Of a stretch of 43,407 nt of DNA, positions 1,924 to 43,407 are shown one piece after another. Source of the stretch: Candidatus Peregrinibacteria bacterium (lineage in GTDB: Bacteria > Patescibacteriota > Gracilibacteria > Peribacterales > Peribacteraceae); contig JABJGX010000011.1 in NCBI GenBank assembly GCA_018662075.1, forward strand, positions 1-43,407, read 5' to 3'. Both the position numbers and the translations under genes were made by a program. Each line of letters starts with the position of its first letter. The first letter of the stretch is position 1. A model generated the notes under the pieces. It was given only the letters and a program-made list of their open reading frames with translations, searched no databases and was not told the DNA's origin.

Positions 1924-3432
1924 ATGAAACGCTCCATCCCAGCAGCACTTCTCTTTCTTGCAATACCACTTACGGTATTCGCACAAGAGGTTCCAAGTAT
2001 CGAACTCGATACGCCAACCGTCATTATTACAGGACCTGAAGAGGTAGAAGTTGGTCGAACCATTGTTCTTGATGCATCTGCAAGCCGAGGTGTCGGTACA
2101 GACCCCGAGTACAAATGGTTTAAAGGAGAAAGCACATACCCAATTAGCAGATCTGTCGAAGCTGTATTCACTCCAGAGTCCACAGGACTCGTTGACCTCC
2201 GTGTTGAAATTACAACAAAAGTCGATGGAGTAACATCAATATTTGAAGCAGCAAGAACTATCACCGTGTACGAACGAAAAATTGTCCTTCTTGCAGACAG
2301 TTCTATTCCGAAGGAAAAGCTACAGCTCCATCTGCAGTCAGCTGCTGAAGCAGGTGTATTCCTTCGCGTTCTGCAGCCAAAAGAGTCCGCTATTCCACTT
2401 GGAACAGAAGAGTCTATGTTCACGATGATCAACGAAGAAAGTGCAACGCTGAATGGTGCAGAGGCAGTCGTTTTATGGACAGAGGGAATCAAAGGGCTAC
2501 AGGCACTCATGCGTGCAGTAGAGAACAATGGTGAAAAATTTGAGTCCATTCATAATCAAACAATAGTTCTTATCACAGACCGCAGCCTTTCAACACTGGC
2601 ACGTACTGCAGGAGGCCCTTTTACGGTCATTCGGCCCGACCAGATACTGGTAACACGTAAAGAGGCAATTAATCCCCTTATCTCTGCAGAGAGCATTGAA
2701 GCTTTCCAGGAGGCTCTACAGCAAAGAGATATCGACTCTATTATCGTCGATGAAAGCACAACGGGGATTCGCCCATGGAACCTCCTTTCATCTCTGGTAA
2801 ACTACATGCTGACACATGGGGTCTCTAGCCAAACGGTCATCCTGCTATTGATGCTACCGATTATTGCGACCATTCTTGCCTTCTTTAAACAGGTTATCGG
2901 AATTACAACATTTGGACTCTACACCCCGTCTATTGTTGCACTCAGCTTTTTGGCTCTAGGATGGCAAATTGGCCTCCTATTCCTTCTCTTCATCCTGATT
3001 ACAGGATATGCAACCCGTTCACTTATGCGTAAATGGAGACTGTTATACATTCCAAAAGTAGCCATTATCCTGACAGTCGTCAGCCTTACTGTACTCGTTC
3101 TTCTGGGCATTGGCGCATACGTAGGAATCACACTATCAGGTGATACCATCTTCGTACTTCTGATTATGTCCACATTGGCAGAAAGCTTCCTTACGGTGAA
3201 ATCTGAAGAAGGATGGAAAGCTGCATCATTTGGTATCGGAGAAACAGTACTCGCAGCACTTGTCTGTGTGTTCATTGTGCAGTGGTCATTCCTGCAGTCA
3301 CTTATACTTGCCTACCCAGAACTCATCTTACTCACCGTTGGTGTGAACGTCTTCCTTGGTAGATGGACAGGACTCAGGCTCGTTGAGTATTTCCGTTTTA
3401 GGGAAGTCTTTAAACACATTCAAGAAGAATAG
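1924..3432 (+). CDS. secreted PKD/Ig-like plus alpha/beta domain protein with a C-terminal 7TM module of the type that accompanies RimK-like ATP-grasp genes
   Basis: Signal peptide MKRSIPAALLFLAIPLTVFAQE. PKD-like stretch VLDASASRGVGTDPEYKWF. About 7 hydrophobic helices over aa ~290-490, ending GRWTGLRLVEYFRFREVFKHIQEE. The stop lies 2 nt before the ATG of the ATP-grasp gene. Confidence 0.7.
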   Translation: MKRSIPAALLFLAIPLTVFAQEVPSIELDTPTVIITGPEEVEVGRTIVLDASASRGVGTDPEYKWFKGESTYPISRSVEAVFTPESTGLVDLRVEITTKVDGVTSIFEAARTITVYERKIVLLADSSIPKEKLQLHLQSAAEAGVFLRVLQPKESAIPLGTEESMFTMINEESATLNGAEAVVLWTEGIKGLQALMRAVENNGEKFESIHNQTIVLITDRSLSTLARTAGGPFTVIRPDQILVTRKEAINPLISAESIEAFQEALQQRDIDSIIVDESTTGIRPWNLLSSLVNYMLTHGVSSQTVILLLMLPIIATILAFFKQVIGITTFGLYTPSIVALSFLALGWQIGLLFLLFILITGYATRSLMRKWRLLYIPKVAIILTVVSLTVLVLLGIGAYVGITLSGDTIFVLLIMSTLAESFLTVKSEEGWKAASFGIGETVLAALVCVFIVQWSFLQSLILAYPELILLTVGVNVFLGRWTGLRLVEYFRFREVFKHIQEE

Positions 3433-3434
3433 GC

Positions 3435-5810
3435 ATGTTTCCTTTTTTCTCCAATCACGGCGTTTTAGGGTTAAATGCTCGAAGTCTCTTGTACATCAAA
3501 CCCTTCAATCCTAAAAAAGCTACTGCCTTTGCAGACAGCAAGCTGAAGAGTAAAGCGTATCTTGCAGCCCGTGGCATACCTGTTGCAAAACTCTATGGAC
3601 GTATAGATACGCGCGATCAATTGTTGCAGTTCGACTTCTCGCACCTTCCAAACGAATGTGTACTAAAGCCTAATTATGGGTATGGAGGAGAAGGAATTAT
3701 TGTTCTTCGTGGAAGGGATAAACAAGGACGGTTTTTACGCAATGGAAAGGTAGCTATGACAGACCAGGAACTCCGTGAACATATAGAAGATATCTTGGAT
3801 GGTAAATTCTCACTAAAAGGACGATTAGACACTGCATTCTTCGAGCAGATCTTGCACAGTCATCCCTGCTTCGCAAAATTCCGACCAGCAGGACTTCCAG
3901 ACCTAAGAATCATTGTATTTAACCTAGTGCCGGTCATGGCAATGGCACGTATTCCAACGGCCAATAGCGACGGAAAGGCGAACATTCACCTTGGTGGACT
4001 CGGTATCGGAATAGACATTGCAAAGGGGACAACCACCTACGCAGCCCAATACCACGGCATGATAGAAGAGCTACCACACGGAGGCTCTCCTGCGGGTCAT
4101 CAAATCCCCTACTGGGATGAAATCCTCCTCATCTGTTCCCAGATTCAGCAAATTACAAATATTGGATACCTAGCGGTAGACATTGCCCTTGACGAACTTA
4201 TGGGGCCCGTACTCCTAGAGGTAAATGCAAGAGCAGGGCTCATGGTACAGGTCGCAAATCTAGCACCTCTAAGGGCACGACTAAAGCGTGTCACTGGCCT
4301 AAAGGTAGACTCTCCAGAAAAGGGAGTGCGCCTCGGGCAAGACCTCTTTGGAAGCAAAACGAAAAAGTCGAACAGCAGTGATCAAAACGGGAAGCCAACC
4401 CTAGGTGTGCAAGAAAATATCTCTATCACCCTTGGTGATGGATCGACCATAGAGCTCAACGCAAAAATCGCCAGCGACCAAGAGCGCACCGTGTTTAGCA
4501 AAAAACTCATCACTGAACTACAAGAGAAAAAAGGTGCAGAACCAGATAAAGATACCGAAGGATTATATCGTGTGAAGTTCACACTAGAAGGAAAGAAGAT
4601 CCAAACCCTTGTGCAGTCAGAAGACCTCGGAGGAACGGATAGAGCAATTATTGGGTCTCGTGACTTAAGTGGATTCCTTATCGACCCATCCAAGAAAGCG
4701 CTGCCTGTCTCTACGCAAAAAGCCGTGCAGAAAACAGACCTCCGTGCTGTAGACCGCCTCCTTGGTCAAATAGATAAAGATCTACTTCTTCTAAAACACA
4801 TCAAACCTATCAACCTCGATGAAGAAATGGACAGACTAAAAGAGGATGCACTCTACAACCCAACCTTCCTCTACTCCGAAATGGGTAGCAGCCTAGAAGA
4901 TGCGAAGAAGAGAATAAAAGACACCGTTAAGGATGACTCTTCACTGGGAGTACTTCTAGAGAAAAAACGAAAAGAGCTCGTCAATCGCATTACCTTACTC
5001 GAGGCACGAGGAAAGAATGCAGAGTTTACAAAAGCCTCTGAAAAGCTCTTTGGTCGTCCGACAAAAGCACTTATCACTAGCGCAGAAAAAGAGATTGCTG
5101 CGCAGATAGCATGCGATTTAAAGCCACAAGACAAAGACATGATTAATGCTGAAAATGCACAAAAGAAATTCAGAGAAGCTATAGAACAATACTCACTCCA
5201 CGAGTGGAGTGTAGATATAAGGACTAAACTTGTATCTCGTGTAACCGTTGGAGGTAATAAAGTATACATACGTGAAGATGCAATGTTTTCAGAACAAGAC
5301 ATTGCTGCACTTATCGCCCATGAAATAGAGACGCACGTATTAACATCTGAGAATGGTAGCCACCAACCATATGCGATTCTTCGTCGTGGGTGTGCTAATT
5401 ATTTAGATACACAAGAAGGGCTCGCTATTTACAACGAAAGAGGTGTGCTCAGCTCACATGCCGAAAAGAGGTACAACTCTGCGCGGAACATTATTGGACT
5501 CGAATACAGTTTGCATCACAGCCTTGCCCAAACACGAACATTTCTTCAAATAGAACTCGGCTATTCATCAGACAAAGCGCTGCAACAGTGTATTTCTATG
5601 AAACGTGGCCTGGGTGACACATCAGAACCTGGCGGATTTACCAAAAGCATGGCGTACTTCAGGGGCCTCAAAGCCATTGAAGCATTCGTGGAAAAAGGGG
5701 GAGACCTAAAGCGGTTATATATAGGAAAAATTTCTATCGAGGACCTGGAAATAATTGAAAAACTACCAGAGCTAACACCACCTCTTATTCTTCCAGACTT
5801 CCTTCGTTAG
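3435..5810 (+). CDS. fusion protein: RimK-related alpha-L-glutamate-ligase-like ATP-grasp (N-terminal) plus DUF1704/MATCAP-like QEGLA-motif zinc carboxypeptidase (C-terminal)
   Basis: N-terminal ~290 aa carry ATP-grasp motifs (VLKPNYGYGGEGIIV, DLRIIVFNLVPVMAMARIP, GPVLLEVNARAGL). The C-terminal part has HEIETH (5319..5336) and, ~30 aa later, TQEGLAIYNE (QEGLA at 5412..5426), a gluzincin-like spacing. The ~190-aa linker is unassigned. Confidence 0.8.
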   Translation: MFPFFSNHGVLGLNARSLLYIKPFNPKKATAFADSKLKSKAYLAARGIPVAKLYGRIDTRDQLLQFDFSHLPNECVLKPNYGYGGEGIIVLRGRDKQGRFLRNGKVAMTDQELREHIEDILDGKFSLKGRLDTAFFEQILHSHPCFAKFRPAGLPDLRIIVFNLVPVMAMARIPTANSDGKANIHLGGLGIGIDIAKGTTTYAAQYHGMIEELPHGGSPAGHQIPYWDEILLICSQIQQITNIGYLAVDIALDELMGPVLLEVNARAGLMVQVANLAPLRARLKRVTGLKVDSPEKGVRLGQDLFGSKTKKSNSSDQNGKPTLGVQENISITLGDGSTIELNAKIASDQERTVFSKKLITELQEKKGAEPDKDTEGLYRVKFTLEGKKIQTLVQSEDLGGTDRAIIGSRDLSGFLIDPSKKALPVSTQKAVQKTDLRAVDRLLGQIDKDLLLLKHIKPINLDEEMDRLKEDALYNPTFLYSEMGSSLEDAKKRIKDTVKDDSSLGVLLEKKRKELVNRITLLEARGKNAEFTKASEKLFGRPTKALITSAEKEIAAQIACDLKPQDKDMINAENAQKKFREAIEQYSLHEWSVDIRTKLVSRVTVGGNKVYIREDAMFSEQDIAALIAHEIETHVLTSENGSHQPYAILRRGCANYLDTQEGLAIYNERGVLSSHAEKRYNSARNIIGLEYSLHHSLAQTRTFLQIELGYSSDKALQQCISMKRGLGDTSEPGGFTKSMAYFRGLKAIEAFVEKGGDLKRLYIGKISIEDLEIIEKLPELTPPLILPDFLR

Positions 5811-5859: not shown

Positions 5860-6777
5860 GCTAACGCGTTCTAGTGTTGGAAGTACCGTCATCCATACTT
5901 GCCCCTCGGCAAATGGAATGTCTTGCCCTGCTGCATCTGTAATGCGGAATGGCTCTTTAAAACTTGAACGACTCCAGCGCGCATCCCACATCTTTCCACT
6001 GTGAAACACCTGCGCCTTACCACCACCATTCAGCGTCATGAATAACCTACCGTAAGCGCCAATCTCATCTATTGGAACTTCCATAATAACCACCGTACTA
6101 GGCCTTGCTGCGCTAATTGTCTCACCATTTGTTCTCTCGTATTTCTGTGACAGAGGCTGGAAATCAAAAGATACATTGTGCAGTACATTGAAAAAATTCA
6201 CGCGTATAGACTCTGCAGTCTCCCCTGCCTCAGGCATTCCTTTTTTAAAAGGAGGCCACAACACCGGACGCAAAAGACTTTCTGGAACCTCTGCAAGGAA
6301 AGATTTAATCAAGTCCTTATTCAGAAACAAATCATGAGGAGCAGCTGGTCCAACTTTACGCAGGGAGCCATGCTCATCATCGAAGTAGAGTAAGTTACGT
6401 GCAAAGAAATTTTTCCCATTGGTCACTCTTTCTAGAGCTTCAGGACTTCCCCCAGCATGGAATACCGTTCGAGACCACGGAGCAATACTATCAAGGAAAT
6501 ACGGACGTAAAGAACGCACTGGTCCAATCTCTCTTGGAATAGCTCGTGCATCAAATGTTGCTACAAAGCGGGAGATAAACCCTTCAACCAAGAACTCCTG
6601 CACCATCACTGCATCCTCTATTCCTGCATGATAAGGCCTCGCATCCTCATGATTTTCAATAACAACCGAGAAGAATGTTTGCTCGGTATTAAAATACCCA
6701 TTCACATATGCAAAAAGAACCGCTGCGCTTAATACTGTAAGTACGATAATAACAAATGGCAGAAACCGAGAAATCAT
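5851..6777 (-). CDS. DUF3048 (YerB-like) family protein with an N-terminal membrane anchor
   Basis: N-terminal TM segment FLPFVIIVLTVLSAAVLFAYV, and the motif VVIENHEDARPYHAGIEDAVMVQEFLVEGFISRFVATF, which is typical of DUF3048. Confidence 0.7.
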   Translation of the reverse strand: MISRFLPFVIIVLTVLSAAVLFAYVNGYFNTEQTFFSVVIENHEDARPYHAGIEDAVMVQEFLVEGFISRFVATFDARAIPREIGPVRSLRPYFLDSIAPWSRTVFHAGGSPEALERVTNGKNFFARNLLYFDDEHGSLRKVGPAAPHDLFLNKDLIKSFLAEVPESLLRPVLWPPFKKGMPEAGETAESIRVNFFNVLHNVSFDFQPLSQKYERTNGETISAARPSTVVIMEVPIDEIGAYGRLFMTLNGGGKAQVFHSGKMWDARWSRSSFKEPFRITDAAGQDIPFAEGQVWMTVLPTLERVSWE

Positions 6778-6788
6778 AGGAAGTGTGT

Positions 6789-7451
6789 TTATTCAGATTT
6801 TGCTTCTTCACCTTCTTTTTTGTCGCCTTCTTCACCTTCTTTCTTTTCTCCTTCTTCATCTTCAGTAGCAGCTGCTTCTTCCTGAACTTCTTCTACAGCA
6901 GCACGTGGCTCCTGAACAGTGGCGATCATCGTGTCGGGCTCGTCCATAATCTGTACACCATCCATAGGGAGAATGTCTGATGCATGAAGTGCATCTCCGA
7001 ACTCCTTAAGACTTGAAAGACTAATATGAAGTGCGTGTGGAAGGTTTGCTGGCAAGCAATGCACAGTAACGTGATCGTTTGTCGTGATAAGTACTCCGTT
7101 AAGAGTCTTTACCGCTTCAGACTCGTCGATGAATTCGAGTGGGATCTGTGCTTCGATCTCCTTCTTCATGTTCACAGCGTAGAAATCAACATGAATAATT
7201 CTGTCACTAACAGGATCAAATGAGAGATCATGGAAGAGAGAAGGAACCTTCTTACCGTCAATATCAAGGTCTACAATTGTACTTCCTCCAGCCTGAACGT
7301 ATGCCTTATAGATCTCGCTATAATCACACTGAATAGACGTATTCTCTGCCTCGTTGCCATAAACAACACCAGGAACGATGCTCTCCCTGCGAAGAACTTT
7401 TGCAGGTGTGTCTGCCAAGCGGGCCTTTGCTTTGAGTGAAATCATTTCCAT
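6789..7451 (-). CDS. rplY: 50S ribosomal protein L25 / general stress protein Ctc, with an acidic E/K/G-rich C-terminal tail
   Basis: LRRESIVPGVVYGNEAENTSIQ...HDLSFDPVSDRIIHVDFYAV matches the L25/Ctc N- and C-domains. Confidence 0.85.
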   Translation of the reverse strand: MEMISLKAKARLADTPAKVLRRESIVPGVVYGNEAENTSIQCDYSEIYKAYVQAGGSTIVDLDIDGKKVPSLFHDLSFDPVSDRIIHVDFYAVNMKKEIEAQIPLEFIDESEAVKTLNGVLITTNDHVTVHCLPANLPHALHISLSSLKEFGDALHASDILPMDGVQIMDEPDTMIATVQEPRAAVEEVQEEAAATEDEEGEKKEGEEGDKKEGEEAKSE

Positions 7452-7509: not shown

Positions 7510-8310
7510 CTACGAATGTTTCCCTTTCCACTTCCAAAAGTACTTAAATGCGCTAGAAACGTGAATTCTTCCAGTTTTTTTAAATAATAGGTCCCAAAAA
7601 CTCTCTCCACTAAGTCGATTTTTTCTATCTGAAGCACTTACAGAAGGGAGGTATATCACTTTTTTCCCAACTTCATGACACCGACGACAAAGATCTGTAT
7701 CTTCAAAGAAGAGGAAAAACCGCTCATCAAACCCGCCAAGCTTCTGAAAAAGATCCCGTCGCATCATGAAGCAACCACCAATAGCCCAGTCTACCTCCTG
7801 CTCTTCATCCAAATTCGTATCCTTCATCAAATACCCATCTAAATACGATGGGAACATGTTCCCAAAAAAGCTTCGTCGAGACACGATATCGGATATGTGT
7901 GGGTAGCGACGAATAGAAAGGCGCTGTGTACCATCATTATGAATAAGACGTGGGGCAACAATGCCAGCATCATCATTCTTCTGAAGGTACGCAACCATCT
8001 TCTCTATCCCCTGTGGCTCTAAGACCTTATCAGGGTTATTCACCACTACAAACTCCCCTACGGCATACGTTATGCCTGCGTTATACCCAGACCCAAACCC
8101 TTCATTGGAAGGAGTCTCTATAAACCGAACATTATGAAACTTCCGTAACTGCGTACGCAAAATTCCAATAGAGTCATCATCTGAATGATTATCAATAACT
8201 AAAATCTCTATTTGAGAGACCAGAGTTTGCTCCTGCAATGCCTTCACACAACGCACTGTGGCATTTGCGTTACGGAAGTTTAGAATAAGAACAGAAACGA
8301 GAGGTTGCAT
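7510..8310 (-). CDS. family 2 glycosyltransferase
   Basis: N-terminal VSVLILNFRN...EILVIDNHSDDDS and a later DxD-like FFEDTDL; typical GT-A/GT2 layout. Confidence 0.85.
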   Translation of the reverse strand: MQPLVSVLILNFRNANATVRCVKALQEQTLVSQIEILVIDNHSDDDSIGILRTQLRKFHNVRFIETPSNEGFGSGYNAGITYAVGEFVVVNNPDKVLEPQGIEKMVAYLQKNDDAGIVAPRLIHNDGTQRLSIRRYPHISDIVSRRSFFGNMFPSYLDGYLMKDTNLDEEQEVDWAIGGCFMMRRDLFQKLGGFDERFFLFFEDTDLCRRCHEVGKKVIYLPSVSASDRKNRLSGESFWDLLFKKTGRIHVSSAFKYFWKWKGKHS

Positions 8311-8349
8311 ACTAGCTCAGAGTAACGCTCTGTGAGAAGATAGCAACCA

Positions 8350-10602
8350 ATGAGTCAGGAATTAGATGAATTGCGCAAGCGGGTACTATCAGCTCCTATG
8401 GAGCCTGGGGTTTATCGATGGCTCAATGCAAAAGGAGACATTATCTACGTTGGTAAAGCAAAAAATCTAAAAAACAGAATGCTATCATATGTACAATCGG
8501 GCTTGTCCGCCGAAGCCTCGGCGAAGGCGGGACCCTGGAAACTATCACTCATAAAAAACATTGCAGACTTCGATGTCACCATCACAACATCAGAGCTCGA
8601 GGCACTGATCCTCGAGACGAATCTGATTAAAGAAATCCAACCAAAATATAATGTGTTGATGAAAGATGGCAAGAGCTACGTCTATGTTCGCATCTCGACC
8701 AAAGACCAGTACCCAAGTATTTCGATTGTCCGAAAAATGGAAGACGATAAAGCTGCTTACTTTGGTCCGTACTTAACAGCATACAATATCAAGAGAACAC
8801 TCGACATGCTGCACGATGTTTTTCGGTACCGTGCATGCGAGGGGTCTGTTCTTGCGCTGAACAAAGAAAAGAAAGTAGGTCGTGCATGTCTGGAATACCA
8901 AATCGGAAAATGTAACGGACTCTGCGTCGGTGATGTAACCAAAAAACAATACCGCGAAGGCATAGAAGAAGTCATGCGATTCCTAAAAGGAGACTACGCA
9001 ACAACGGTACTGTCTCTAAAAGATATGATGGAAGTAGCAGCAACCGAAAAGAAGTTTGAGCGCGCAGGAAAGCTTCGTGACACCCTGAAATACATTGCCA
9101 CTCTTAATGAACAACAAACCGTATCAGACACATCCCGAGAAGACACAGATGCAATTGGAATGGCAGTACAAAACGGTAAAGTGCAAGTAGTAGTCTTACA
9201 CGAACGCAATGGAAGAGTCGTAGACGAGCGAAGCTTCGCTGTCTCTGGAGAATCGGACTCGGTAAGTGATGCCCTCTCGCAGCTGATCCCCCAGCTCTAT
9301 AGTTCTGCACCAGAAATCCCAGACTTAGTCGTGATTCCAGAGGAGCCAGAAGACATCGCCGTGCTGGAAGAGTGGCTCACACAAATGCGCGGGAAAAAGG
9401 TAGAGCTCAGAGCTGCCGAGCGCGGTAAGAAATCGAAACTCTTGGCCCTTGCACAAAGTAATGCCACGCAAAAGATATCCCAGCAGTTTGCAAAGTGGGA
9501 AGCTGCTTCAAAAAACATTGCAGACGCATTAGAAGACCTTAAAGACACACTAAAACTTCCAGGTATTCCGAGTCGCATCGAAGGCTACGACATTTCACAC
9601 CTCGGTGGAACAGAAACTGTCGGGTCTATGGTCGTCATCAAGAACGGAAAACCTGCAAACCCTGAATATCGGTCATTCACAATAAGAACAATGCAGAGCG
9701 GTGAAATAGATGATTACAAAGCACTAAAAGAAGTACTTAGGCGTAGGCTGCACTATCTAGTAGAAGAAAATACAGAGATCGTAATAACAAAACTGAAAAA
9801 GAAAGAGCGAGAAGAGTGGTCCGCAGATAAAAAGAAGAGGCTAGAGGTCCCTAAAGATTGGAAAGAAGAAGTACTCGTTGTACGCGAAAACGAAACAGAG
9901 CTTCTGACACTTGACCTTAGAAAATCTGCAAAAGACAAAATAATCTACGGGACAATAGATATACAGACAAAAGATGATGCACTATTACACAGCGCACTCG
10001 ATACGCTAGAAAAAGAAATTGGAAAGCGCGAGTGGTATCTCTGCTGTCAGACTGATGTTGATACCGATATGTTTGCACTACACGGGCTCATGGATTCAGT
10101 GAAAAAAATGCCTGACCATTTCAAGTCTAACTGCGCACATATGTTCCATCGTCGGAAGACAATTAGTGATGCATCGTTAAATTCTACACCAGACCTTTTG
10201 GTTATAGATGGCGGAAAAGGACAGCTGAGCAGTGTAAAAGAAGTACTCGACGAACTGAAAATGACGATCCCTGTTATCGGCCTCGCAAAACGAGAGGAGG
10301 AAGTATTTTTACCAGGACAGTCTTTACCGGAAGACCTTCCAAAGAATTCCCAAGCTAGTTTTTTGCTGCAAAGACTCCGGAACGAAGCACACAGGTTTGC
10401 AAACTCTCACAGAGAAAAACGTATCGCAAAAGGACTGATAGGTTCTGCACTCGACTCGGTCCCAGGTATTGGTGACATTACGAAAAAAGAATTGCTTCAA
10501 AAGTTCGGCTCTGTAGCAGGGATTATCGCAGCTCCAGATGCAGAGATACTAAAAATAGTGAATACTCAAAAGCTCGAAGATCTACGAAAGCACCTTACGT
10601 AG
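8350..10602 (+). CDS. uvrC: excinuclease ABC subunit C, with a ~144-aa lineage-specific insert
   Basis: GIY-YIG N-domain (GVYRWLNAKGDIIYVGKAKNLKNR), Cys-rich region, UVR motif (FERAGKLRDTL), endonuclease domain (IEGYDISHLGG, LLVIDGGKGQL, GLAKREEE) and C-terminal HhH. It is 750 aa, versus the ~600 aa I recall for typical UvrC. Confidence 0.9.
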   Translation: MSQELDELRKRVLSAPMEPGVYRWLNAKGDIIYVGKAKNLKNRMLSYVQSGLSAEASAKAGPWKLSLIKNIADFDVTITTSELEALILETNLIKEIQPKYNVLMKDGKSYVYVRISTKDQYPSISIVRKMEDDKAAYFGPYLTAYNIKRTLDMLHDVFRYRACEGSVLALNKEKKVGRACLEYQIGKCNGLCVGDVTKKQYREGIEEVMRFLKGDYATTVLSLKDMMEVAATEKKFERAGKLRDTLKYIATLNEQQTVSDTSREDTDAIGMAVQNGKVQVVVLHERNGRVVDERSFAVSGESDSVSDALSQLIPQLYSSAPEIPDLVVIPEEPEDIAVLEEWLTQMRGKKVELRAAERGKKSKLLALAQSNATQKISQQFAKWEAASKNIADALEDLKDTLKLPGIPSRIEGYDISHLGGTETVGSMVVIKNGKPANPEYRSFTIRTMQSGEIDDYKALKEVLRRRLHYLVEENTEIVITKLKKKEREEWSADKKKRLEVPKDWKEEVLVVRENETELLTLDLRKSAKDKIIYGTIDIQTKDDALLHSALDTLEKEIGKREWYLCCQTDVDTDMFALHGLMDSVKKMPDHFKSNCAHMFHRRKTISDASLNSTPDLLVIDGGKGQLSSVKEVLDELKMTIPVIGLAKREEEVFLPGQSLPEDLPKNSQASFLLQRLRNEAHRFANSHREKRIAKGLIGSALDSVPGIGDITKKELLQKFGSVAGIIAAPDAEILKIVNTQKLEDLRKHLT

Positions 10603-11173
10603 ACTGAGACCCTGAACGAATTGGACCGTTTCCATCAACGTATCGCTGGTAGTACGTCACCGTGCTAGAGATCTTTGCTGCCACCTGATCTGCATTGGGA
10701 ACAAATTTGAGAGCAATCACACCACCCCCCTCTCCCTCTTTTAGGTTTATAATAATCTTTCCAAAGCCAAAGATATTTCCATACTGCGTTTCGGATGCAA
10801 TGCTTCCGATATTTTCGAGATGAATCGGATTAACCTTCTGACGAATAAGGGAAGTCTGATCAACAAGAACTAGCTTATCTGTAGTAACCAAAATAAAATC
10901 GTACCGCCAGTCTATCCACGCTGACAAGAAGTTGAAGAATATGAAGAAGAACCACACTGTAAAAAGCACCCCACTCACCCAAAGCATAGGGACCTCTAGG
11001 AACCAAAGTCCTATTCCTATAGAAAATATGAACATTGTCACAAATACCTCTCGAACCGTGGCAAAGAAGAAGCTGAGAGCATGGTAATACGTCATAAGAA
11101 CTACCTCCTCCCCATTAGATAGGCATTGGTTCTTTATAACCTCCGGATCGGTCTCAAGGGCAAGAATACGCAT
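10595..11173 (-). CDS. membrane protein with a bacterial PH (bPH_2 / YdbS-like) domain
   Basis: Two to three TM helices are followed by DFILVTTDKLVLVDQTSLIRQKVNPIHLENIGSI...FGFGKIIINLKEG, resembling bPH domains. There is an 8-nt convergent overlap with uvrC. Confidence 0.55.
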   Translation of the reverse strand: MRILALETDPEVIKNQCLSNGEEVVLMTYYHALSFFFATVREVFVTMFIFSIGIGLWFLEVPMLWVSGVLFTVWFFFIFFNFLSAWIDWRYDFILVTTDKLVLVDQTSLIRQKVNPIHLENIGSIASETQYGNIFGFGKIIINLKEGEGGGVIALKFVPNADQVAAKISSTVTYYQRYVDGNGPIRSGSQST

Positions 11174-11225
11174 AGAAGCTATACTACCGTAATCAGTCAG
11201 CTTTGGGAATTTCTCCAGAGATCTT

Positions 11226-11253
11226 TTGCGTTTAGCCTCTATATGCGTAGAAT
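11226..11253 (+). promoter_or_regulatory. candidate sigma-70-type promoter for tRNA-Glu (TTGCGT-16 nt-TAGAAT)
   Basis: The hexamers lie at 11226..11231 and 11248..11253. The -10 ends 9 nt before the first tRNA base. Confidence 0.4.
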
Positions 11254-11262
11254 TCCCCAGTT

Positions 11263-11337
11263 GGCCCGTTCATCTAATGGTTAGGATACCAGGTTCTCAT
11301 CCTGGAAATAGGGGTTCGATTCCCCTACGGGCTACCA
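11263..11337 (+). tRNA. tRNA-Glu (anticodon CUC), genomically encoded CCA
   Basis: Hand-folded cloverleaf:
- Acceptor stem GGCCCGT/ACGGGCT, with G1-U72.
- D arm ATCT-AATGGTTA-GGAT.
- Anticodon arm CCAGG-TTCTCAT-CCTGG, anticodon at 11296..11298.
- Variable region AAAT.
- T arm AGGGG-TTCGATT-CCCCT.
- Discriminator A followed by CCA.
The total is 75 nt. Confidence 0.85.
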
Positions 11338-11338
11338 A
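11323..11338 (+). repeat. direct repeat copy 1 (attL-like): 3' end of tRNA-Glu, CCCTACGGGCTACCAA
   Basis: Exact 16-nt match to 16322..16337. Confidence 0.8.
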
Positions 11339-11372
11339 CTCATAAATCATATATTGACAGAATGTATTATTA

Positions 11373-11423
11373 AACTTCTATACTACTGTAGAAGTTGTTA
11401 AAAGTGCTGTTTTATGGTAAAAT
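11373..11423 (+). promoter_or_regulatory. candidate promoter (TTGTTA-17 nt-TGgTAAAAT) with an 8-bp inverted repeat overlapping the -35
   Basis: The inverted repeat is AACTTCTA (11373..11380) / TAGAAGTT (11389..11396). The -35 lies at 11395..11400. The extended -10, TGGTAAAAT, lies at 11415..11423 and ends 9 nt before the ATG at 11433. Confidence 0.4.
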
Positions 11424-11432
11424 AGTAAGATT

Positions 11433-11774
11433 ATGCAAAAACAAAAACTCATTGAGGAGCTAACACTTCTAACAGGGCGATCTGCGATACTTACACCACA
11501 TCATAAAAAGGCAATTCTTAAAGCTTTGCCGACAATGAAACAAGAAAAGATACTAGAGCTTCAAGAAATTCTTGGAGAAGAAAGATCTGTGATTGCAGTA
11601 TTTGCAGAACAGACTATTTCACAAGCAATACAGCACGGTGATACAAAAATATTCAAAAAAATGGATTCATTGCTTGTAAAAACGAATAAGAAATTACTAA
11701 AGACGGATGAAGTTACAAGCACATCCATAGAACAAGGACAGCTAGAACACTTCTTTGATGACATAACTACATGA
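11433..11774 (+). CDS. hypothetical protein (113 aa), translationally coupled to the giant gene
   Basis: ORF track. The stop TGA overlaps the next ATG (ATGA) and is followed in frame by TAA. No recognisable family. Confidence 0.5.
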   Translation: MQKQKLIEELTLLTGRSAILTPHHKKAILKALPTMKQEKILELQEILGEERSVIAVFAEQTISQAIQHGDTKIFKKMDSLLVKTNKKLLKTDEVTSTSIEQGQLEHFFDDITT

Positions 11775-14700
11775 TAAATCAAAGTCCAGATCGGCAATCC
11801 TATAACAAGCGCATCCAAGAAACGCAAAATGATATCGATAAAACGGATTCAAAACTCGATAGCAGAATTGATATAGATGGTATGGACCCAGAAGAGCAAG
11901 AAGCTCTGAAAGAGGCGTACATAGATAAGGTAAATTTGATGCAGGGAAAAGTACATCGATCATTTGAGAATATTGATATCCAACGAAACCTTCGCTCTCC
12001 TCAGTGGAGAAAATGGGAGAAAGAAATCATCACAGTTGAAGCGAACCTTTTAATGATTCTTAGAAAAGAGAGTTCTAGACTAAATCGTTCAAATAAAGAA
12101 GCTAATGCAACATCAGGCCTCGATGATTTTAATAAAAAAATAGATTCATTTCTTCATGAAATTGATGCAATTGATGAAGTGCATAACACGCCTGCTCCAG
12201 CGGAAAAACTTAATGAAAAAGAGCCAGAGAAGCTCCGCTCTGCAGATGCCATATTCCATGAATGGAATGTCCCAGGGACAGACGAGGAGATCACAGAGAA
12301 GGCGCAGAAAGCAAACGAACGATACGGAGAAGAAACCTTACGCAATCTCGATGCAACTCTCTCATTGTATGATGCTCTAGATCCAGAATTAAGAAAGAAG
12401 CTCTTTAAACAAAGTACTACTGTAAGGCTTCCACAAGTAGCTGGGCAATTAGCAAATGGAACATTTGAGTCCTCCCCTCTTGGGTTCCTTCTTACAGAAG
12501 ATATTGAAACCATTGAAGGTCAACTATTGATAGAACGAGAAGAAATAATAGATGTCATCGGAAGAAAGACCTCAGAAGTACAATCTCTTAAAGAGGCAAC
12601 CACCGAGACTATTACAAGACTATGTAAAGTGGCTGGTATAGACGTAGGAAAAGAGAACGTTCTCAGCGATATCTATTCATGGATGGCCAATACCAATGGT
12701 AAACCTGAACTACAAAAAAAGATTGTGGGAGAAATTAGAGATATGGCTAAAAAAGTTACAGAACTGCAAAAAGAGTCACAGGATTTGTATCCTCAAGTGA
12801 CTACGATAGAACGTGCATTTAATGTATTTGACACAAATAACGCTCGTAATGTGGGCAATGCAAAAGAGGAAGCACAGTTACGCTACCGAGGAGCGCTGGA
12901 ATATGGCATCCCATTCCCAGGTGATGCTGAATTACAAAAACTACTTCGACCAACACAAATGAATCTATTAAAAGGAGAGCCCGAAAAGGCTTTGCACGTA
13001 TCTATAGATGAGCTCAATACATTCATGGAACAAAATCCAAACCTAGATACTCTTCATCGTGTTGATGTTCTATCTTTACATAGTGTACGAAAACGCAAAG
13101 TTACTAAAGCTACATTCCAGACGTTCACAGTGGCTAGTAATCCTCTTGATGCCTTTAGGCGTTCCAAAAATGCAGCGTTCGATATAGGAGGAAGCCTAGA
13201 TACCAAACAAAAAACATATACGGTACTAACAGAACTGGGGACAATAGCGAATGGGGATGAGATTATTGCTATAAAGCTTCCACCTTACAATGGAAGACCA
13301 AGCGAAAAGGTAATCGCCATACGTAATACAAATGGCATTGTTCAGCTGCAGGATGGAACTGTTATTGAAAAGCCAGATAAATTGCAGCCTATGATTATTA
13401 ACTCTATGAATGGCGATGGAGAAACAACCTACGTCTCTAAGGAGACATCAAAATACTTACAAGAAAATGTAAATATTGGGAGTAAAAACAGGGTGATACT
13501 CAGAAATCGTGATGCCATAAATTCTAAAGAGTCTTTTACTGGAGGAACATCGATAAGGATGCTCGATACATCGCAGCTGCAACTTGCATCACGTGATGGA
13601 AAAGGGATGCTAATTATCAAAGGTGCAGATGGCAAACAAGAAGAGTCAATCAACGAAGAGTTCCTACTAAAAGGAAGTGCAGAGCATGGAGGCGATGTCC
13701 TACAAAGCATCGATAAAAACCCAATTGTTCAAGGTATCACAAAGCGAGCAGGTGGACTCCAAGAGAACATGCAGAATATGCAAACAATGTTAGAAACTGC
13801 AATGGACAGCAAGGCAACAACCCAAGGAGCTTTTGTAGATCAGATGCGAAGTTATGCTAGACCGATGCTGGCAACCATGGAAGACCCTGCAACTCGTCAA
13901 AATATCGTACAAGCAAAAAACCTTCTCCAGTCAGAGCTCAGTCGTGTGAAGCTAGGAAGCTATGTTGGAAGTGGAATAGAAAGTGAGATACAAGATCGTA
14001 TCGATGCACTAGACGGCTACATTACGGTGCTCAATGATAACCAGCTAAAGAATGCACTGCAAAATGCAATGGAGCTAAAACCCGAAGAATGGGCTGAATG
14101 GTTGAGCACTGATGGCCTCATCATGCTTGGTGCTATTGCCCTAGCGATAGTGGCCATTGTTGCATTAACAGTGCTTACAGGAGGAGCAGGACTTATTGCT
14201 ATCTCTGCAGTAGGTGCAGCAGGTGGACTAATTGGCGGAGAGCTAACAAAAGAAGGGCTGCACCATGCTTATAATACTTGGGGTGGAGCTGCTTCGGGTG
14301 AATATCGATATAATGATAGATCACGATTCGGTGCGTACCTTGAAGGACAAAAACTATACGACCCAAAGACAAAAGAGTTTGTAGATATGAGCTTTCTAGA
14401 AAACGTAGCTGCGCCATATGCACGAGACTTTGCAGTTAGCTTTGCAACAACAGCCCTTGCGCTTGGTGCAGGGCAGGCTGTCGGGAATAGTCTGAGTAAA
14501 CTAGCGCAGAATTCTAAATGGATACAGGCTCTCTCAAAGAATAACAAAGTTGCAAATAGCATTATGAAAAAGTTATCTGGCCTTGCAGATGATGCAGCAA
14601 CAATTCCAAAGAACATGAAGGAATTTGCTGGAAAATCCCTAAAAGAAATTGCTGATGAGCTCGGGGATGAACTCGTACTAGAAAAGAGTGCAGAAGGTGT

Positions 14701-16282
14701 TCTTAATCGTATTGACAGTCGATTAGGTTCGCTTGCGACATTCTTCGTCGCTGCTGGAAAAGGGTTTAAGCCAATGGCTGGAGGAAAGCTTAGCTACGGA
14801 GCAGAAAAGAAAAGTGCTGATGTGCGAGTAGACATAGAAAGCCAAGGTCACACTATTGTTTCTGAGATAAATGGTGTCTTTGACGTGAAAACATACGATG
14901 GAAAAACCCTTATTATAGAACCAGAAACAGTAACGGAAGCCACCAGTAATACTGAAGCCTTAGACCTTGCTACGCAACATGACCTTGCAGCACTAAAAGA
15001 ATATGTAAAAGCGCATGATATAGATGACTCCACTCGTATCACTCTTGCAGAAACTGTACTCGACCGCACACTGAGCCCAGCAGATCGCAAAGCTTTGATC
15101 ACTGCGCACAACAAACCTGGAACTATCGATGAACTCACACCAAGTGAACTTAAAGTAAAAGCTACAGAACTCCGGGATAACGCAACATTTACAAAGACAG
15201 AACGAAGAATGCTCATAGAAGCAGGTCTAGCAGGACGGCCACCAGTAATAGGTACGAGAAAAGGTCCGCCGCCGCCTCCTCCAATGAGAAATAAGAAGAG
15301 GCCACCGCCAGCAATAGGTGTTATGAAAAGCTCTCCTGAAAGTAAAAAAGATCCTCTTCTGCCATCTATACAATTAAGTGACATCAATGTACTTACTGGA
15401 GATCAGCGAAAAGCATACATTAAATCTAAGATGAACAATCCATTATGGATAAGGTCATTAGGTGCCGCGCAACGAAGAATGACTGTGTTCCCATCAAAAG
15501 AAAATACTCACCACATACTTTGGGTAAAAGATAATAGCGGTCCAACAAATACTGTTGGAGCTAAAACTCTTTCGTATAAATATCTAATGAGCCCTGAAGG
15601 ATCATTAGAGCATTCAATATTTTTAGAAGGTGAGAAGATGATGATGAAAGCATTTGCAGATGCTCAATCAATGTTTCCAAAAAATGTAAAAGTAGCTACT
15701 GGTTTTACAGTAGAAAGCATGAGTGCAGATACCGGAATGAGCCATGGTAATCTATTGGGCTACAAAGTGAATACTGATAACACCAATAGGCTATTTACAT
15801 TAATAGCAGAGGCAAGAAAGACCGGAGATTACTCAAAAGTAGAAAGTCATATTGATTGGATAAAATCTGCCTTTGCACATGAAACAACTCATGCCGCACG
15901 TAATGACCTTGATAATCTTCCAGGACTTAATGCAAACGAAGTTCCATCACATGCAGTCCAATTCTTAACAATATGGGATAAGCCTGACAGGTTCTTCTCC
16001 CAAAGAATAAGCTCACTAAAGAATAAGCCGCTAAGTAGTTTCGGTAGAATCCATGGAGAACTTGGAGGCCTTAAGGTGGTACAAGAGAAACTTATTGCCT
16101 GTAGCGACTGTTCCTATAAGCCAAAAGATCTGACACCTGTGGAGCTAAAGAAGGCTATTGAATCTATTCCAGAGGCAAAGCGTGGTTCTGTAATCGATAC
16201 AATGGTCGCGGAGTTAGTAACAACACCAGTAGCTGATTTTCAGGCTAATGTTCGCACTGTATTTGATGAATCTCAAAAGTAG
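11771..16282 (+). CDS. giant (1503 aa) effector-like protein with four parts: a hydrophilic helical N-region, a central hydrophobic hairpin, a polyproline tract, and a C-terminal HExxH domain
   Basis: Uninterrupted 4.5-kb ORF with no signal peptide. Hydrophobic hairpin LIMLGAIALAIVAIVALTVLTGGAGLIAISAVGAAGGLIGG (14114..14239). GPPPPPPMRNKKRPPPA (15263..15310). AFAHETTHAARN (HETTH at 15878..15892). Confidence 0.8.
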   Translation: MINQSPDRQSYNKRIQETQNDIDKTDSKLDSRIDIDGMDPEEQEALKEAYIDKVNLMQGKVHRSFENIDIQRNLRSPQWRKWEKEIITVEANLLMILRKESSRLNRSNKEANATSGLDDFNKKIDSFLHEIDAIDEVHNTPAPAEKLNEKEPEKLRSADAIFHEWNVPGTDEEITEKAQKANERYGEETLRNLDATLSLYDALDPELRKKLFKQSTTVRLPQVAGQLANGTFESSPLGFLLTEDIETIEGQLLIEREEIIDVIGRKTSEVQSLKEATTETITRLCKVAGIDVGKENVLSDIYSWMANTNGKPELQKKIVGEIRDMAKKVTELQKESQDLYPQVTTIERAFNVFDTNNARNVGNAKEEAQLRYRGALEYGIPFPGDAELQKLLRPTQMNLLKGEPEKALHVSIDELNTFMEQNPNLDTLHRVDVLSLHSVRKRKVTKATFQTFTVASNPLDAFRRSKNAAFDIGGSLDTKQKTYTVLTELGTIANGDEIIAIKLPPYNGRPSEKVIAIRNTNGIVQLQDGTVIEKPDKLQPMIINSMNGDGETTYVSKETSKYLQENVNIGSKNRVILRNRDAINSKESFTGGTSIRMLDTSQLQLASRDGKGMLIIKGADGKQEESINEEFLLKGSAEHGGDVLQSIDKNPIVQGITKRAGGLQENMQNMQTMLETAMDSKATTQGAFVDQMRSYARPMLATMEDPATRQNIVQAKNLLQSELSRVKLGSYVGSGIESEIQDRIDALDGYITVLNDNQLKNALQNAMELKPEEWAEWLSTDGLIMLGAIALAIVAIVALTVLTGGAGLIAISAVGAAGGLIGGELTKEGLHHAYNTWGGAASGEYRYNDRSRFGAYLEGQKLYDPKTKEFVDMSFLENVAAPYARDFAVSFATTALALGAGQAVGNSLSKLAQNSKWIQALSKNNKVANSIMKKLSGLADDAATIPKNMKEFAGKSLKEIADELGDELVLEKSAEGVLNRIDSRLGSLATFFVAAGKGFKPMAGGKLSYGAEKKSADVRVDIESQGHTIVSEINGVFDVKTYDGKTLIIEPETVTEATSNTEALDLATQHDLAALKEYVKAHDIDDSTRITLAETVLDRTLSPADRKALITAHNKPGTIDELTPSELKVKATELRDNATFTKTERRMLIEAGLAGRPPVIGTRKGPPPPPPMRNKKRPPPAIGVMKSSPESKKDPLLPSIQLSDINVLTGDQRKAYIKSKMNNPLWIRSLGAAQRRMTVFPSKENTHHILWVKDNSGPTNTVGAKTLSYKYLMSPEGSLEHSIFLEGEKMMMKAFADAQSMFPKNVKVATGFTVESMSADTGMSHGNLLGYKVNTDNTNRLFTLIAEARKTGDYSKVESHIDWIKSAFAHETTHAARNDLDNLPGLNANEVPSHAVQFLTIWDKPDRFFSQRISSLKNKPLSSFGRIHGELGGLKVVQEKLIACSDCSYKPKDLTPVELKKAIESIPEAKRGSVIDTMVAELVTTPVADFQANVRTVFDESQK

Positions 16283-16321
16283 TAAAATATTTTGCACCCA
16301 CAGCCCCATCCACCAGTCTTT

Positions 16322-16337
16322 CCCTACGGGCTACCAA
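16322..16337 (+). repeat. direct repeat copy 2 (attR-like): orphan copy of the tRNA-Glu 3' end
   Basis: Exact 16-nt match, CCCTACGGGCTACCAA, to 11323..11338. There is no tRNA body upstream of it. Confidence 0.8.
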
Positions 16338-16338
16338 T

Positions 16339-16363
16339 TTCCTCTTGCAGGAGGGATTTTTTT
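16339..16363 (+). terminator. intrinsic terminator directly after the orphan tRNA 3' fragment
   Basis: The stem TTCCTCT/GGAGGGA has 7 bp including 2 G-U pairs. The loop is TGCA and a run of 7 T follows. Confidence 0.65.
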
Positions 16364-16372
16364 CGATATGAT
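16345..16372 (+). promoter_or_regulatory. candidate promoter for the SET gene (TTGCAG-16 nt-TATGAT)
   Basis: The -10 lies at 16367..16372 and ends 9 nt before the ATG at 16382. Confidence 0.3.
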
Positions 16373-16381
16373 CTTGCGGTT

Positions 16382-16774
16382 ATGAAACTCTGGTTTGGAA
16401 AATATAGGCCACGACATGAACTCATCGTAAAGAAAGGACTCGCAGGTCTTGGGCTTTTTGCCACAGATGATATCCTGAAAGATGACTTTATCATTGAATA
16501 CACAGGCCCACTACTCACAGAAGAGCAATCAGAAGAAAAAGCAGGCTTATATTTATTTGCAGTCACCGATACCAAGTGGACCATCGATGGCAGTGGCCGC
16601 GAAAACATTGCCAGATATATAAACCATAGCTGCAAACCAAATTGCACCCCGTATGCAGATGGCAAACGTATCGTTATTCATGCGAAACGAAATATTAAAG
16701 CAGGTGAGGAGCTGACCTATAACTATGGCAAAGAATATATGGATGACCTCAACTGCAGGTGTCCGCACTGCTAG
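16382..16774 (+). CDS. SET-domain protein (putative protein lysine methyltransferase)
   Basis: GLGLFATDDILKDDFIIEYTGPLL, ARYINHSCKPNC, EELTYNYG and a C-terminal post-SET-like CRCPHC. I moved the start from the TTG at 16292 to the ATG at 16382, because the extension would read through the att repeat and the terminator. Confidence 0.85.
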   Translation: MKLWFGKYRPRHELIVKKGLAGLGLFATDDILKDDFIIEYTGPLLTEEQSEEKAGLYLFAVTDTKWTIDGSGRENIARYINHSCKPNCTPYADGKRIVIHAKRNIKAGEELTYNYGKEYMDDLNCRCPHC

Positions 16775-16789
16775 TGGTATACTTCGCGT

Positions 16790-17041
16790 ATGCCTCACTA
16801 CTTCTATCTTGCCCGCTGTAAAGACGATTCGCTGTACAGTGGAACATGTATCAACCTAGAGCAGCGCGAAGCCACGCATAACGCAGGAAAAGGTGCCAAG
16901 TACACACGGGCAAAAGGCCCCGTGAAGTTTGTGTACCACGAAACATTTGAAACCCTCAGCGAAGCCCGCAAACGTGAAGCCGAAGTAAAAAAAATGTCTA
17001 AGACAGAAAAGGAGAAGCTAGCATCAGAAATATCCCCTTAA
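16790..17041 (+). CDS. GIY-YIG nuclease superfamily protein (UPF0213/YhbQ-like, 83 aa)
   Basis: YFYLARCKDDSLYSGTCINLEQREATHNAGKGAKYTR...ARKREAEVKKMSK is the typical stand-alone GIY-YIG pattern. Confidence 0.8.
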   Translation: MPHYFYLARCKDDSLYSGTCINLEQREATHNAGKGAKYTRAKGPVKFVYHETFETLSEARKREAEVKKMSKTEKEKLASEISP

Positions 17042-17051
17042 TACCTAATAC

Positions 17052-17504
17052 TTAATGATGGTACCCCGTCCCCTTTTGTATTTGATGTGCTCTATAAAGT
17101 TGTTCTAGGAACACTACTCTGCAGAGTTCGTGCGGCAATACCATGTCGCTCAGTCGAAGCAATTTTTCACCACGACTGCGTACTTCATCTGTCAGTCCGA
17201 ATGCACCACCAAGAACGAAGATCAGTGGAACACTACAGTCTCGGCACTGTTCAAGCGTCTTTGCAAATGTAAGAGATGTCATCTGCGTACCAGTTTCATC
17301 GAGCACCCAAACTTCTCCTTTCATCTTTTCAAGCTTCTTCAAAAGAGCATCGCTATCTTCCTGCTTCTGCTTAACCTCATCTTTCTGCTTACTCGCAGGT
17401 ACTTCTATCACATCGATGTCGATACGACCGAGATACTGCTCGCACCCTTCTTTCGCCCAAGCAGTCTTCACGGAGCCGACTGCAAGGAGGGTAATCTTGT
17501 TCAT
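17052..17504 (-). CDS. rlmH: 23S rRNA (pseudouridine1915-N3)-methyltransferase RlmH (SPOUT)
   Basis: The length and the C-terminal block FVLGGAFGLTDEV...LSDMVLPHELCRVVFLEQLYRA fit RlmH. Confidence 0.9.
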   Translation of the reverse strand: MNKITLLAVGSVKTAWAKEGCEQYLGRIDIDVIEVPASKQKDEVKQKQEDSDALLKKLEKMKGEVWVLDETGTQMTSLTFAKTLEQCRDCSVPLIFVLGGAFGLTDEVRSRGEKLLRLSDMVLPHELCRVVFLEQLYRAHQIQKGTGYHH

Positions 17505-43319: not shown

Positions 43320-43407
43320 GGACAGAAGGTTACCTTTATTTCTTCTTCTATCCAAATTTTGCTATACTTCAAGCCTGATGGACATCAAAAGACTATCTCG
43401 TCGGCGC

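Follow-up and report, generated by a model that had tools for sequence, protein, structure and literature searches.

An integrase-free islet probably placed by site-specific recombination at the 3' end of tRNA-Glu in a Candidatus Peregrinibacteria genome

Introduction

How did a two-gene operon with no integrase of its own come to lie between an intact tRNA gene and an isolated second copy of that gene's 3' end? This question is raised by a 43,407-nt stretch of a Candidatus Peregrinibacteria genome (assembly GCA_018662075.1, contig JABJGX010000011.1, positions 1 to 43,407 of the forward strand; hereafter the window), in which tRNA-Glu(CTC) is followed by 5 kb of DNA and then by the orphan copy. 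A sequence-only reading of the window had taken this arrangement for the attL/attR footprint of integration into a tRNA 3' end, and the comparative evidence upholds that view: the content of the site varies among relatives, the right boundary is marked by the start of homology in one of them, further orphan ends occur at the same tRNA elsewhere, and large serine recombinase (LSR) genes adjoin it in related genomes. We consider it probable that 11339-16318 is an islet placed by site-specific recombination at the 3' end of tRNA-Glu(CTC), resembling a cis-mobilizable element (CIME), with an LSR as the most likely enzyme. Loci on other contigs are cited below by L numbers and proteins by P numbers.

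Results

A direct repeat of the tRNA-Glu 3' end and a probably displaced terminator

The proposed boundaries comprise the following features:

11263..11337, plus strand: intact tRNA-Glu, anticodon CTC, CCA encoded (ARAGORN; Rfam RF00005, 62 bits), on the putative attL side
11320..11338, plus strand: left repeat copy TTCCCCTACGGGCTACCAA, from the end of the T-loop to CCA plus one base
16283..16318, plus strand: 36-nt spacer from the large-gene stop to the orphan repeat, read from the sequence
16319..16337, plus strand: orphan copy of the tRNA 3' end TTTCCCTACGGGCTACCAA, putative attR core
16339..16363, plus strand: intrinsic terminator with a 7-bp stem and T7 (hairpin 16339-16356), directly 3' of the orphan copy and presumably the original tRNA terminator

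The tRNA-Glu(CTC) is the sole tRNA of the window according to ARAGORN and Rfam. The 16-mer CCCTACGGGCTACCAA, which the sequence-only reading had pointed out, occurs in two exact copies on the plus strand, at 11323 and 16322, and the search for additional copies that it proposed returned none within the window, even at up to 3 mismatches. The repeat in fact extends to 18 identical positions of 19 (11320-11338 versus 16319-16337), beginning at TT, the last two T-loop bases, and the left copy covers the end of the T-loop, the 3' strands of the T-stem and the acceptor stem, the discriminator, CCA and one extra base. Its length alone says little, since the window holds three exact same-strand 16-mer pairs where about 0.4 are expected under an order-2 Markov model; the same caution had earlier been drawn from an estimate of about 0.2 pairs. 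Such repeats are not in themselves rare here, as the two other exact direct pairs demonstrate (AAAAAACATTGCAGAC inside uvrC, 8553/9510, and CTTCTTCACCTTCTTT, 6803/6827, with copies 24 nt apart). What marks this repeat as non-random is its position, because it copies the tRNA's own 3' end, falls in an intergenic gap and directly precedes a terminator. For this specific tRNA end to recur by chance the expectation is about 1e-5 (43 kb x 4^-16), and a second copy of the 16-mer appeared in 0 of 100 shuffled sequences.

The earlier reading had also noted a terminator after the orphan copy and none after the tRNA, and both halves of this observation stand, as no terminator was found between the intact tRNA-Glu and the 113-aa gene that follows it. 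Several relatives carry a terminator directly 3' of tRNA-Glu, with which the identification of the hairpin at 16339 as the tRNA's own terminator agrees. The right boundary is precise, because homology between the window's right flank and the relative L070 begins at 16337, where the orphan copy ends; the hairpin is conserved there upstream of the SET gene.

Variable content of the site among relatives

Two relatives, L008 and L070, share the flanks of the window (UvrC, bPH, tRNA-Glu, SET, GIY-YIG, RlmH and TRAM) and carry unrelated inserts of 0.9 and 0.7 kb. L008 (the same as L057 and similar to L059) is fully syntenic, with a UvrC 77% identical, and has a single 295-aa minus-strand gene (0.9 kb) after the tRNA; no orphan repeat was found in it. 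In L070, whose SET protein is 83% identical, the tRNA is followed by a 0.73-kb GC-rich insert with a 173-aa gene. This 730-bp insert (L070 288-1018, tRNA-sense) has its own promoter, a gene ending in TGA and a strong terminator. It presumably arrived, or was remodelled, by another route, since no tRNA-derived repeat was found around it. Taken together, L008/L057/L059, L070, L071 and L063/L079 all have DNA other than the cassette after the same tRNA, which is identical to that of the window in L058, L063/L079 and L070. Among more distant relatives (UvrC about 66% identical), the interval from tRNA-Glu to rlmH ranges from 1.1 to 5.9 kb and its content varies. The exception in content is L058 (bPH 76% identical), which has an identical junction, with 11139-11404 matching at 90-100% and the first 66 nt of the cassette 98% identical.

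Throughout the clade, the hypervariable interval is delimited by two 3' ends, that of tRNA-Glu and that of the rlmH homologue (encoding a SPOUT methyltransferase), and corresponds to 11338-17051 in the window. The 5' side of the tRNA is variable as well, since the window is without a MazE/MazF-like pair (AbrB-type antitoxin and PemK-like toxin, as judged from sequence) that lies between the bPH gene and tRNA-Glu in L008 (12931-13493).

Other scars and LSR genes at tRNA-Glu

Orphan tRNA-Glu ends also occur at other loci. In L067, a perfect 28-nt repeat of the tRNA-Glu 3' end (TTCGATTCCCCTACGGGCTACCAAAGAG; 1575-1880, tRNA-sense) encloses a gene-less segment of 190 bp. The repeat begins with the first base of the T-loop and a terminator of its own follows each copy; the segment resembles an island that has been emptied almost completely, or a minimal scar. 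In L052, 13 nt of the tRNA-Glu 3' end are repeated 1.5 kb downstream. In L065, a degenerate copy lies about 1.2 kb downstream, fused to a C-terminal LSR remnant with a tail of the non-tRNA type, and an integrase-less 318-aa gene occupies the space between it and the intact tRNA-Glu (7547-9014, tRNA-sense). This arrangement looks like the tandem accretion of two elements.

LSR genes, with Resolvase, Recombinase and Zn_ribbon_recom domains, lie directly 3' of tRNA-Glu(CTC) in L061, L063/L079 and L080 and of tRNA-Glu(TTC) in L081, in each case antisense to the tRNA; L079 is syntenic with the window. The encoded proteins are about 500 aa long (among proteins P0128-P0152; L061, L063/L079 340-1866, L080 10001-11521, L081 10001-11527). 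Their reading frames contain no stop before attL and run antisense into the tRNA, such that their C-termini are translated T-arms (for example ...VARRGIEPLFPG), with endings including ..RGIEPLFPG, ..GFEPTTSRL and ..GLEPTTKSLRG. LSR homologues without a tRNA-type ending share a different tail, ..RTSWNSLLAFMESI... With the remnant in L065 included, LSRs are present at tRNA-Glu in five lineages. By comparison, no tyrosine recombinase adjoining tRNA-Glu was found in the 24 related loci whose downstream open reading frames (ORFs) were listed or scanned.

A further LSR is encoded by L083, a 16-kb phage-like contig with a terminase small subunit, an HNH protein, a DNA methylase, a LexA-like repressor and a second resolvase. 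At the end of its LSR ORF (7880-7990), where the tail differs from the tRNA type, there is a mimic of the tRNA-Glu 3' end of about 14 nt, CGTTGGGGCTGCCA. Judged from these features, L083 appears to hold the LSR in unintegrated form, with the mimic as the candidate attP of a temperate phage of these bacteria, and integration by an enzyme of this type would yield direct repeats as long as those of the window. The sequence after CCA is also similar between the window (ACTCATAAATC) and the 3' end of the L080 LSR (ACTCAGAATCC). The link between the window scar and this LSR family is circumstantial, consisting of the shared tRNA, a compatible repeat length and position, and this short resemblance. 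Viral contigs were searched as well. The 24 hits to the 16-mer were rejected as evidence for attP, 16 of them being ordinary phage-encoded tRNA-Glu genes, and a search with the L063 LSR returned only a 27% relative.

A relocatable two-gene cassette

The DNA between the repeats is organized as follows:

11339..11432, plus strand: cassette leader with 15-nt junction, TTGACA box, inverted repeat and promoter
11433..11774, plus strand: 113-aa partner gene without a known domain, ending in a TGA stop that overlaps the following start codon (ATGA)
11771..14941, plus strand: conserved N-terminal module of the large protein, aa 1-1057 (53% identity to P0002; hydropathy scan)
14942..16282, plus strand: variable C-terminal part of the large protein, a linker and then a 323-aa domain

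The promoter with an operator-like inverted repeat and the two translationally coupled genes that the sequence-only reading had described are all present. The leader starts with a 15-nt junction, CTCATAAATCATATA, from the left repeat to the TTGACA box (11354-11359), followed by the inverted repeat (11373-11382/11387-11396) and a promoter at 11395-11423, TTGTTA-17-TGgTAAAAT, with a TG-extended -10 element; a search of the leader against Rfam matched only the tRNA. The two ORFs, 11433-11774 (113 aa) and 11771-16282 (1503 aa), overlap by ATGA. Only 15 nt on the left (repeat to TTGACA box) and 36 nt on the right (stop codon to repeat) separate this unit from its boundaries.

The same unit can be recognized elsewhere. 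A partner of 104-113 aa precedes every full-length homologue of the large protein that was examined (L007, L058, L074, L075 and L078), and the two genes overlap by 4 nt in L007, L074, L075 and L078. L074, L075/L078 and L007 carry leader, partner and large gene at non-tRNA loci. Neither a tRNA nor an orphan repeat was found at these loci, and there are no direct repeats of at least 9 nt around the cassettes there. The closest cassette found, in L074, is 61% identical and lies at an unrelated locus. Its leader is laid out as in the window, with the TTGACA box, the palindrome and AAAAGTG...TTTTGTGCTAAAAT, from which it follows that the leader abutting the tRNA in the window belongs to the cassette. 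In addition, the motif GCCCCATCC of the 36-nt spacer recurs in the 3' trailer of the cassette in L074. The cargo is therefore a discrete, relocatable unit consisting of the promoter, the 113-aa partner and the 1503-aa protein.

The stop codon of the partner gene is the only TGA stop among the 41 window genes, just as had been noted before. As a marker of foreign origin it was rejected, because it is part of the ATGA overlap, which is also seen in L007, with 4-nt overlaps in L074, L075 and L078 as well. TGA stops are likewise absent from 15 long ORFs in the close relative L008, and they are used freely in the more distant relatives L065, L079, L080 and L081. Lineages neighbouring the Peregrinibacteria read TGA as glycine. 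In this host, TGA looks avoided rather than reassigned, since no in-frame TGA interrupts genes.

A protein family with exchanged C-terminal domains

A Candidatus Peregrinibacteria metagenome-assembled genome encodes a hypothetical protein identical to the 1503-aa protein (P0001). P0001 is 53% identical to P0002 over aa 5-1057, beyond which the C-termini are unrelated. An exhaustive search for homologues of its N-terminal 1058 residues returned 125 representatives, about 10 of them full-length (1616-3016 aa). The protein has no signal peptide, and in its centre a hydropathy scan revealed a hydrophobic hairpin (aa 782-826, nt 14114-14248) that recalls membrane-inserted effectors. No Pfam or NCBIfam domain, including any known trafficking or secretion domain, was found in aa 1-1058. 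A linker with a proline-rich run (aa ~1156-1180) leads to the 323-aa C-terminal domain (aa 1181-1503, nt 15311-16279), which contains an HExxH motif, HETTH, at nt ~15878-15892. The sole homologue of this domain is the free-standing 370-aa P0003, which is 47% identical and conserves AHExTH. The cargo gave no domain match in Pfam, NCBIfam, PADLOC or sequences of the Protein Data Bank, and an AlphaFold model of the C-terminal domain was unusable, with a predicted local distance difference test score of 42 from a 2-sequence alignment. No relatives of the 1503-aa protein were found in viral contigs.

The C-terminal domains of homologues include an AvrRxo1/zeta toxin, RelA_SpoT, a protein kinase, and a kinase together with calpain. 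Because the family keeps its N-terminal 1057 residues and exchanges its C-terminal enzyme domains, the 1503-aa protein and its partner may represent a polymorphic effector or toxin with a helper. At other loci the large gene has a downstream neighbour. The AvrRxo1/zeta-toxin version in L007 is followed by an HD_4 phosphohydrolase gene that overlaps it (6101-6928), and the large gene of L075 by a 202-aa gene (11889-12497); both are possible immunity or antidote genes.

Surroundings in the window

Both flanks consist of chromosomal genes, namely L25, a GT2 glycosyltransferase, UvrC and the bPH-domain gene to the left of tRNA-Glu, and SET-domain, small GIY-YIG, RlmH and TRAM methyltransferase genes to the right of the orphan repeat. 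The first conserved chromosomal gene right of the scar is:

16382..16774, plus strand: SET-domain gene (Pfam SET, 5e-27)

It encodes a 130-aa protein with a eukaryote-like lysine methyltransferase fold and is followed by an 83-aa stand-alone GIY-YIG protein, the two genes spanning 16382-17041. Both are kept in L008 and L070, where SET is 78-83% identical; distant relatives are without them and have a zinc-ribbon protein and a small membrane protein in that place. The rlmH homologue lies on the minus strand at 17052-17504. Further upstream, at 1924-5810, a 7TM_transglut membrane protein gene precedes a fusion of a sugar-transfer-type ATP-grasp with MATCAP (tubulin tyrosine carboxypeptidase-like), a pair that is also kept in the relatives L001 and L079. 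The Pfam scan took in 40 of the 41 picked window genes, all but 42654-43355, and detected no recombinase among them.

Discussion

Based upon these features, a route by which the islet reached its present position can be proposed. The 3' end of tRNA-Glu, serving as attB, would have recombined with a mimic of 16-19 nt on incoming DNA (attP). Such an integration would have rebuilt the tRNA at attL and moved the original 3' end, together with its terminator, 5 kb downstream to attR. The 36-nt spacer may then be the left arm of the former attP, which can be reconstructed as ...CCAGTCTTTCCCTACGGGCTACCAACTCATAAATC..., while the predicted empty site would read GGTTCGATTCCCCTACGGGCTACCAATTTCCTCTTGCAGGAGGGA and the predicted circle junction CATCCACCAGTCTTTCCCTACGGGCTACCAACTCATAAATCATATATTGACA. 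In a circularized cassette, stop codon and promoter would be separated by about 70 bp of non-coding DNA, presumably enough for one att site. As an islet without a recombinase it would behave as a CIME, with its integrase either supplied from elsewhere or since lost, and any present-day mobility would presumably depend upon such a supply. The likeliest enzyme would be an LSR of the phage-borne family that occupies the same tRNA in related genomes, acting in trans or subsequently lost. A bolder extension, which we regard as rather improbable, is that tRNA-Glu serves as a cassette-exchange platform, at which integrase-less single-operon effector cassettes, each with no more than about 70 bp of att DNA, are swapped in trans by phage-type LSRs in an integron-like manner.

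Several observations weigh against placement by an LSR and against mobility in general. As the sequence-only reading had remarked, the cassette has no integrase, excisionase or phage genes; Pfam detected no integrase, excisionase or phage domain in it or in the other scanned window genes, and no phage structural, replication or packaging genes in the cassette. No strictly empty site, which the earlier reading had hoped to find in relatives, was encountered, and what relatives show in its place is other DNA at the site; neither the empty site (tRNA followed by TTTCCTCTTGCAGG) nor a circular junction was seen in any collection, although the metagenome scan was incomplete, as it missed contig L006 (the strain's own, from the Joint Genome Institute), which contains the pattern. 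The 1503-aa protein is encoded on 24 contigs of the strain, of which the six that were fetched have the same gene arrangement; samples in which the strain occurs are ERZ27237646, ERZ27250184, ERZ4201034, SRR7265439 and JGI 3300025676. Five of these six were comparable and had 0 mismatches in 5150 nt across the island, and hence show no polymorphism for excision. The spacer left of the orphan copy does not contain the LSR-type tail coding seen in L065 and in the homologues without a tRNA-type ending. Around the LSRs of L080 and L081, the search for an orphan repeat extended to 10 kb and found none, so that for the repeat length of this LSR family only L083 and L065 can be drawn upon; the elements in L080 and L081 are probably larger than the retrieved DNA. 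Nor does an immunity-like ORF follow the large gene, whose stop codon is separated from the repeat by only 36 nt.

The remaining points of this kind concern age. The L058 cassette is strongly diverged (partner 43% and large protein 53% identical), implying either long residence or repeated targeting of the site, and it could reflect long residence with differential loss rather than mobility. In its synonymous codon usage, the cargo occupies a middle position within the host distribution. A comparison of composition with the flanks, suggested along with the original proposal, gave a divided answer: codon usage is indistinguishable from that of the host, and only GC content at third codon positions is low (0.25 and 0.31 versus about 0.40 in the host), with an overall GC content of 0.38-0.40 over 11-13.5 kb versus 0.44. 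Composition was rejected as an argument for recent acquisition on account of the host-like codon usage. The insertion is old rather than recent, and compositionally adapted to its host, given that its codon usage matches the host and that a diverged cassette occupies the identical junction in L058.

It is conceivable that the cassette was not itself the inserted DNA but is an old locus that evolves fast and has been inherited vertically, with the orphan repeat left behind as the attR of another, deleted element that once occupied the site, and that absence of the cassette elsewhere (L008, L070 and others) reflects loss or replacement at a hotspot of recombination. The host-like codon usage, the uniformity within the strain and the diverged L058 cassette behind a junction 98% identical would all fit such a history, as would the fact that at another locus the pair is syntenic in L075 and L078, a hint of vertical descent there. 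We nevertheless judge this account unlikely. The repeats bracket the cassette almost exactly, with merely 15 and 36 nt to spare, and the leader adjoining the tRNA is a part of the cassette that is present in L074 too. Moreover, the closest homologue (L074, 61%) resides at an unrelated locus while the one at the same locus (L058) is 53% identical, which argues for relocation or transfer of the unit.

The scar could also be real and yet the work of a tyrosine integrase, the element having been a small island or satellite whose integrase gene was lost or lies elsewhere, and the LSRs of relatives being unrelated users of the same hotspot. Tyrosine integrases are the classical enzymes for integration at tRNA 3' ends, and their islands typically show repeats of the tRNA 3' end such as those of 13-28 nt observed here. 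No convincing LSR-tail coding remnant or dyad symmetry was found in the left arm of the window's attR, and no attR was recovered for any integrated LSR element, both of which would suit this enzyme. What makes the proposal quite unlikely in our view is the comparison of neighbours, with no tyrosine recombinase next to tRNA-Glu in the 24 related loci and LSRs or a remnant in five lineages, and the tRNA 3'-end mimic in the putative attP of the L083 LSR. The simplest objection, that the 16-nt repeat is a chance match without any insertion, draws on the three exact pairs in the window and is exceedingly improbable. Both the expectation for this specific tRNA end and the shuffles speak against it, the orphan lies in an intergenic gap directly before a terminator, L070 homology starts at its last base, and the same phenomenon recurs in independent relatives (L067, L052 and L065); the comparative data effectively refute it.

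Site-specific placement of a CIME-like islet, which we therefore favour, has close parallels among known systems. CIMEs have been defined among islands related to ICESt1 and ICESt3 in Streptococcus thermophilus, where elements accrete in tandem at att sites (PMC5704250). Like these, the islet lies between attL and attR (the target-gene 3' end and a direct repeat) without integration or transfer genes, and a tandem arrangement is possible in L065. Integrase-bearing LSR elements, which may be cognate to the islet, occupy the same tRNA in the relatives L061, L063/L079 and L080 with a remnant in L065; none was found in the 43 kb of the window itself. The differences are that the cargo here is a single operon, that these bacteria have no known conjugative element and none is involved, and that CIMEs were defined in Firmicutes with tyrosine integrases. 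Another parallel is offered by the ssrA islands of Dehalococcoides, in which a 20-bp repeat begins in the T-loop and a serine recombinase of 540 aa is encoded antisense by attL (McMurdie et al. 2011, PMC3146451); 15 of these islands are without an integration module and have been taken for cis-mobilizable elements (PMC3146451). The similarities extend to a repeat of about 20 bp of the RNA-gene 3' end from the T-loop (from 11320 in the window), a reverse-strand serine recombinase of about 500-540 aa by attL (in relatives, being absent from the window), the frequent lack of an integration module and a hypervariable region downstream of the RNA gene. In contrast, the target is tRNA-Glu here and transfer-messenger RNA there, the window islet is without any integration module, no multi-island array is visible in the window, and the cargo is effector-like rather than composed of reductive dehalogenases.

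The cargo itself can be compared with polymorphic toxins, as its homologues share aa 1-1057 and then diverge fully, the window C-terminal domain also occurs free-standing (P0003) and a small gene is coupled upstream. Toxin or enzyme domains form the C-termini of homologues; the window's own domain shows only the conserved HExxH motif and no family match. The cargo differs from polymorphic toxins in having no recognized trafficking domain (LXG, RHS, MafB, PT-TG or similar), no signal peptide and no downstream immunity gene in the window. A last comparison is prompted by rlmH. In staphylococci, the staphylococcal cassette chromosome mec (SCCmec) is moved by the Ccr large serine recombinases into an attB at the 3' end of rlmH, and integrase-less SCC-like remnants bounded by direct repeats occur. 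Insertion by an LSR at the 3' end of a conserved gene would be common to both, and the variable interval described here ends at the 3' end of the rlmH homologue. However, the repeat copies the tRNA end and not that of rlmH, of which no repeat was seen, and the proximity to rlmH may be coincidental.

In sum, the genomic islet at this locus is of a familiar kind and its effector-like cargo is unfamiliar, and the locus extends known island biology to a new lineage without overturning current understanding. Mobile elements of the Candidate Phyla Radiation are poorly described. The window and its relatives show that tRNA-Glu is a recurrent integration hotspot in the Peregrinibacteria, tied to a phage-borne LSR family, at which very small recombinase-free islets persist, and they supply att sequences that can be tested. 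Through the cargo, a family of large membrane-hairpin proteins comes into view that had no annotation before; its members have exchanged their enzymatic C-termini, are accompanied by a conserved small partner and are candidates for interaction with hosts or competitors in organisms that are thought to be symbionts.

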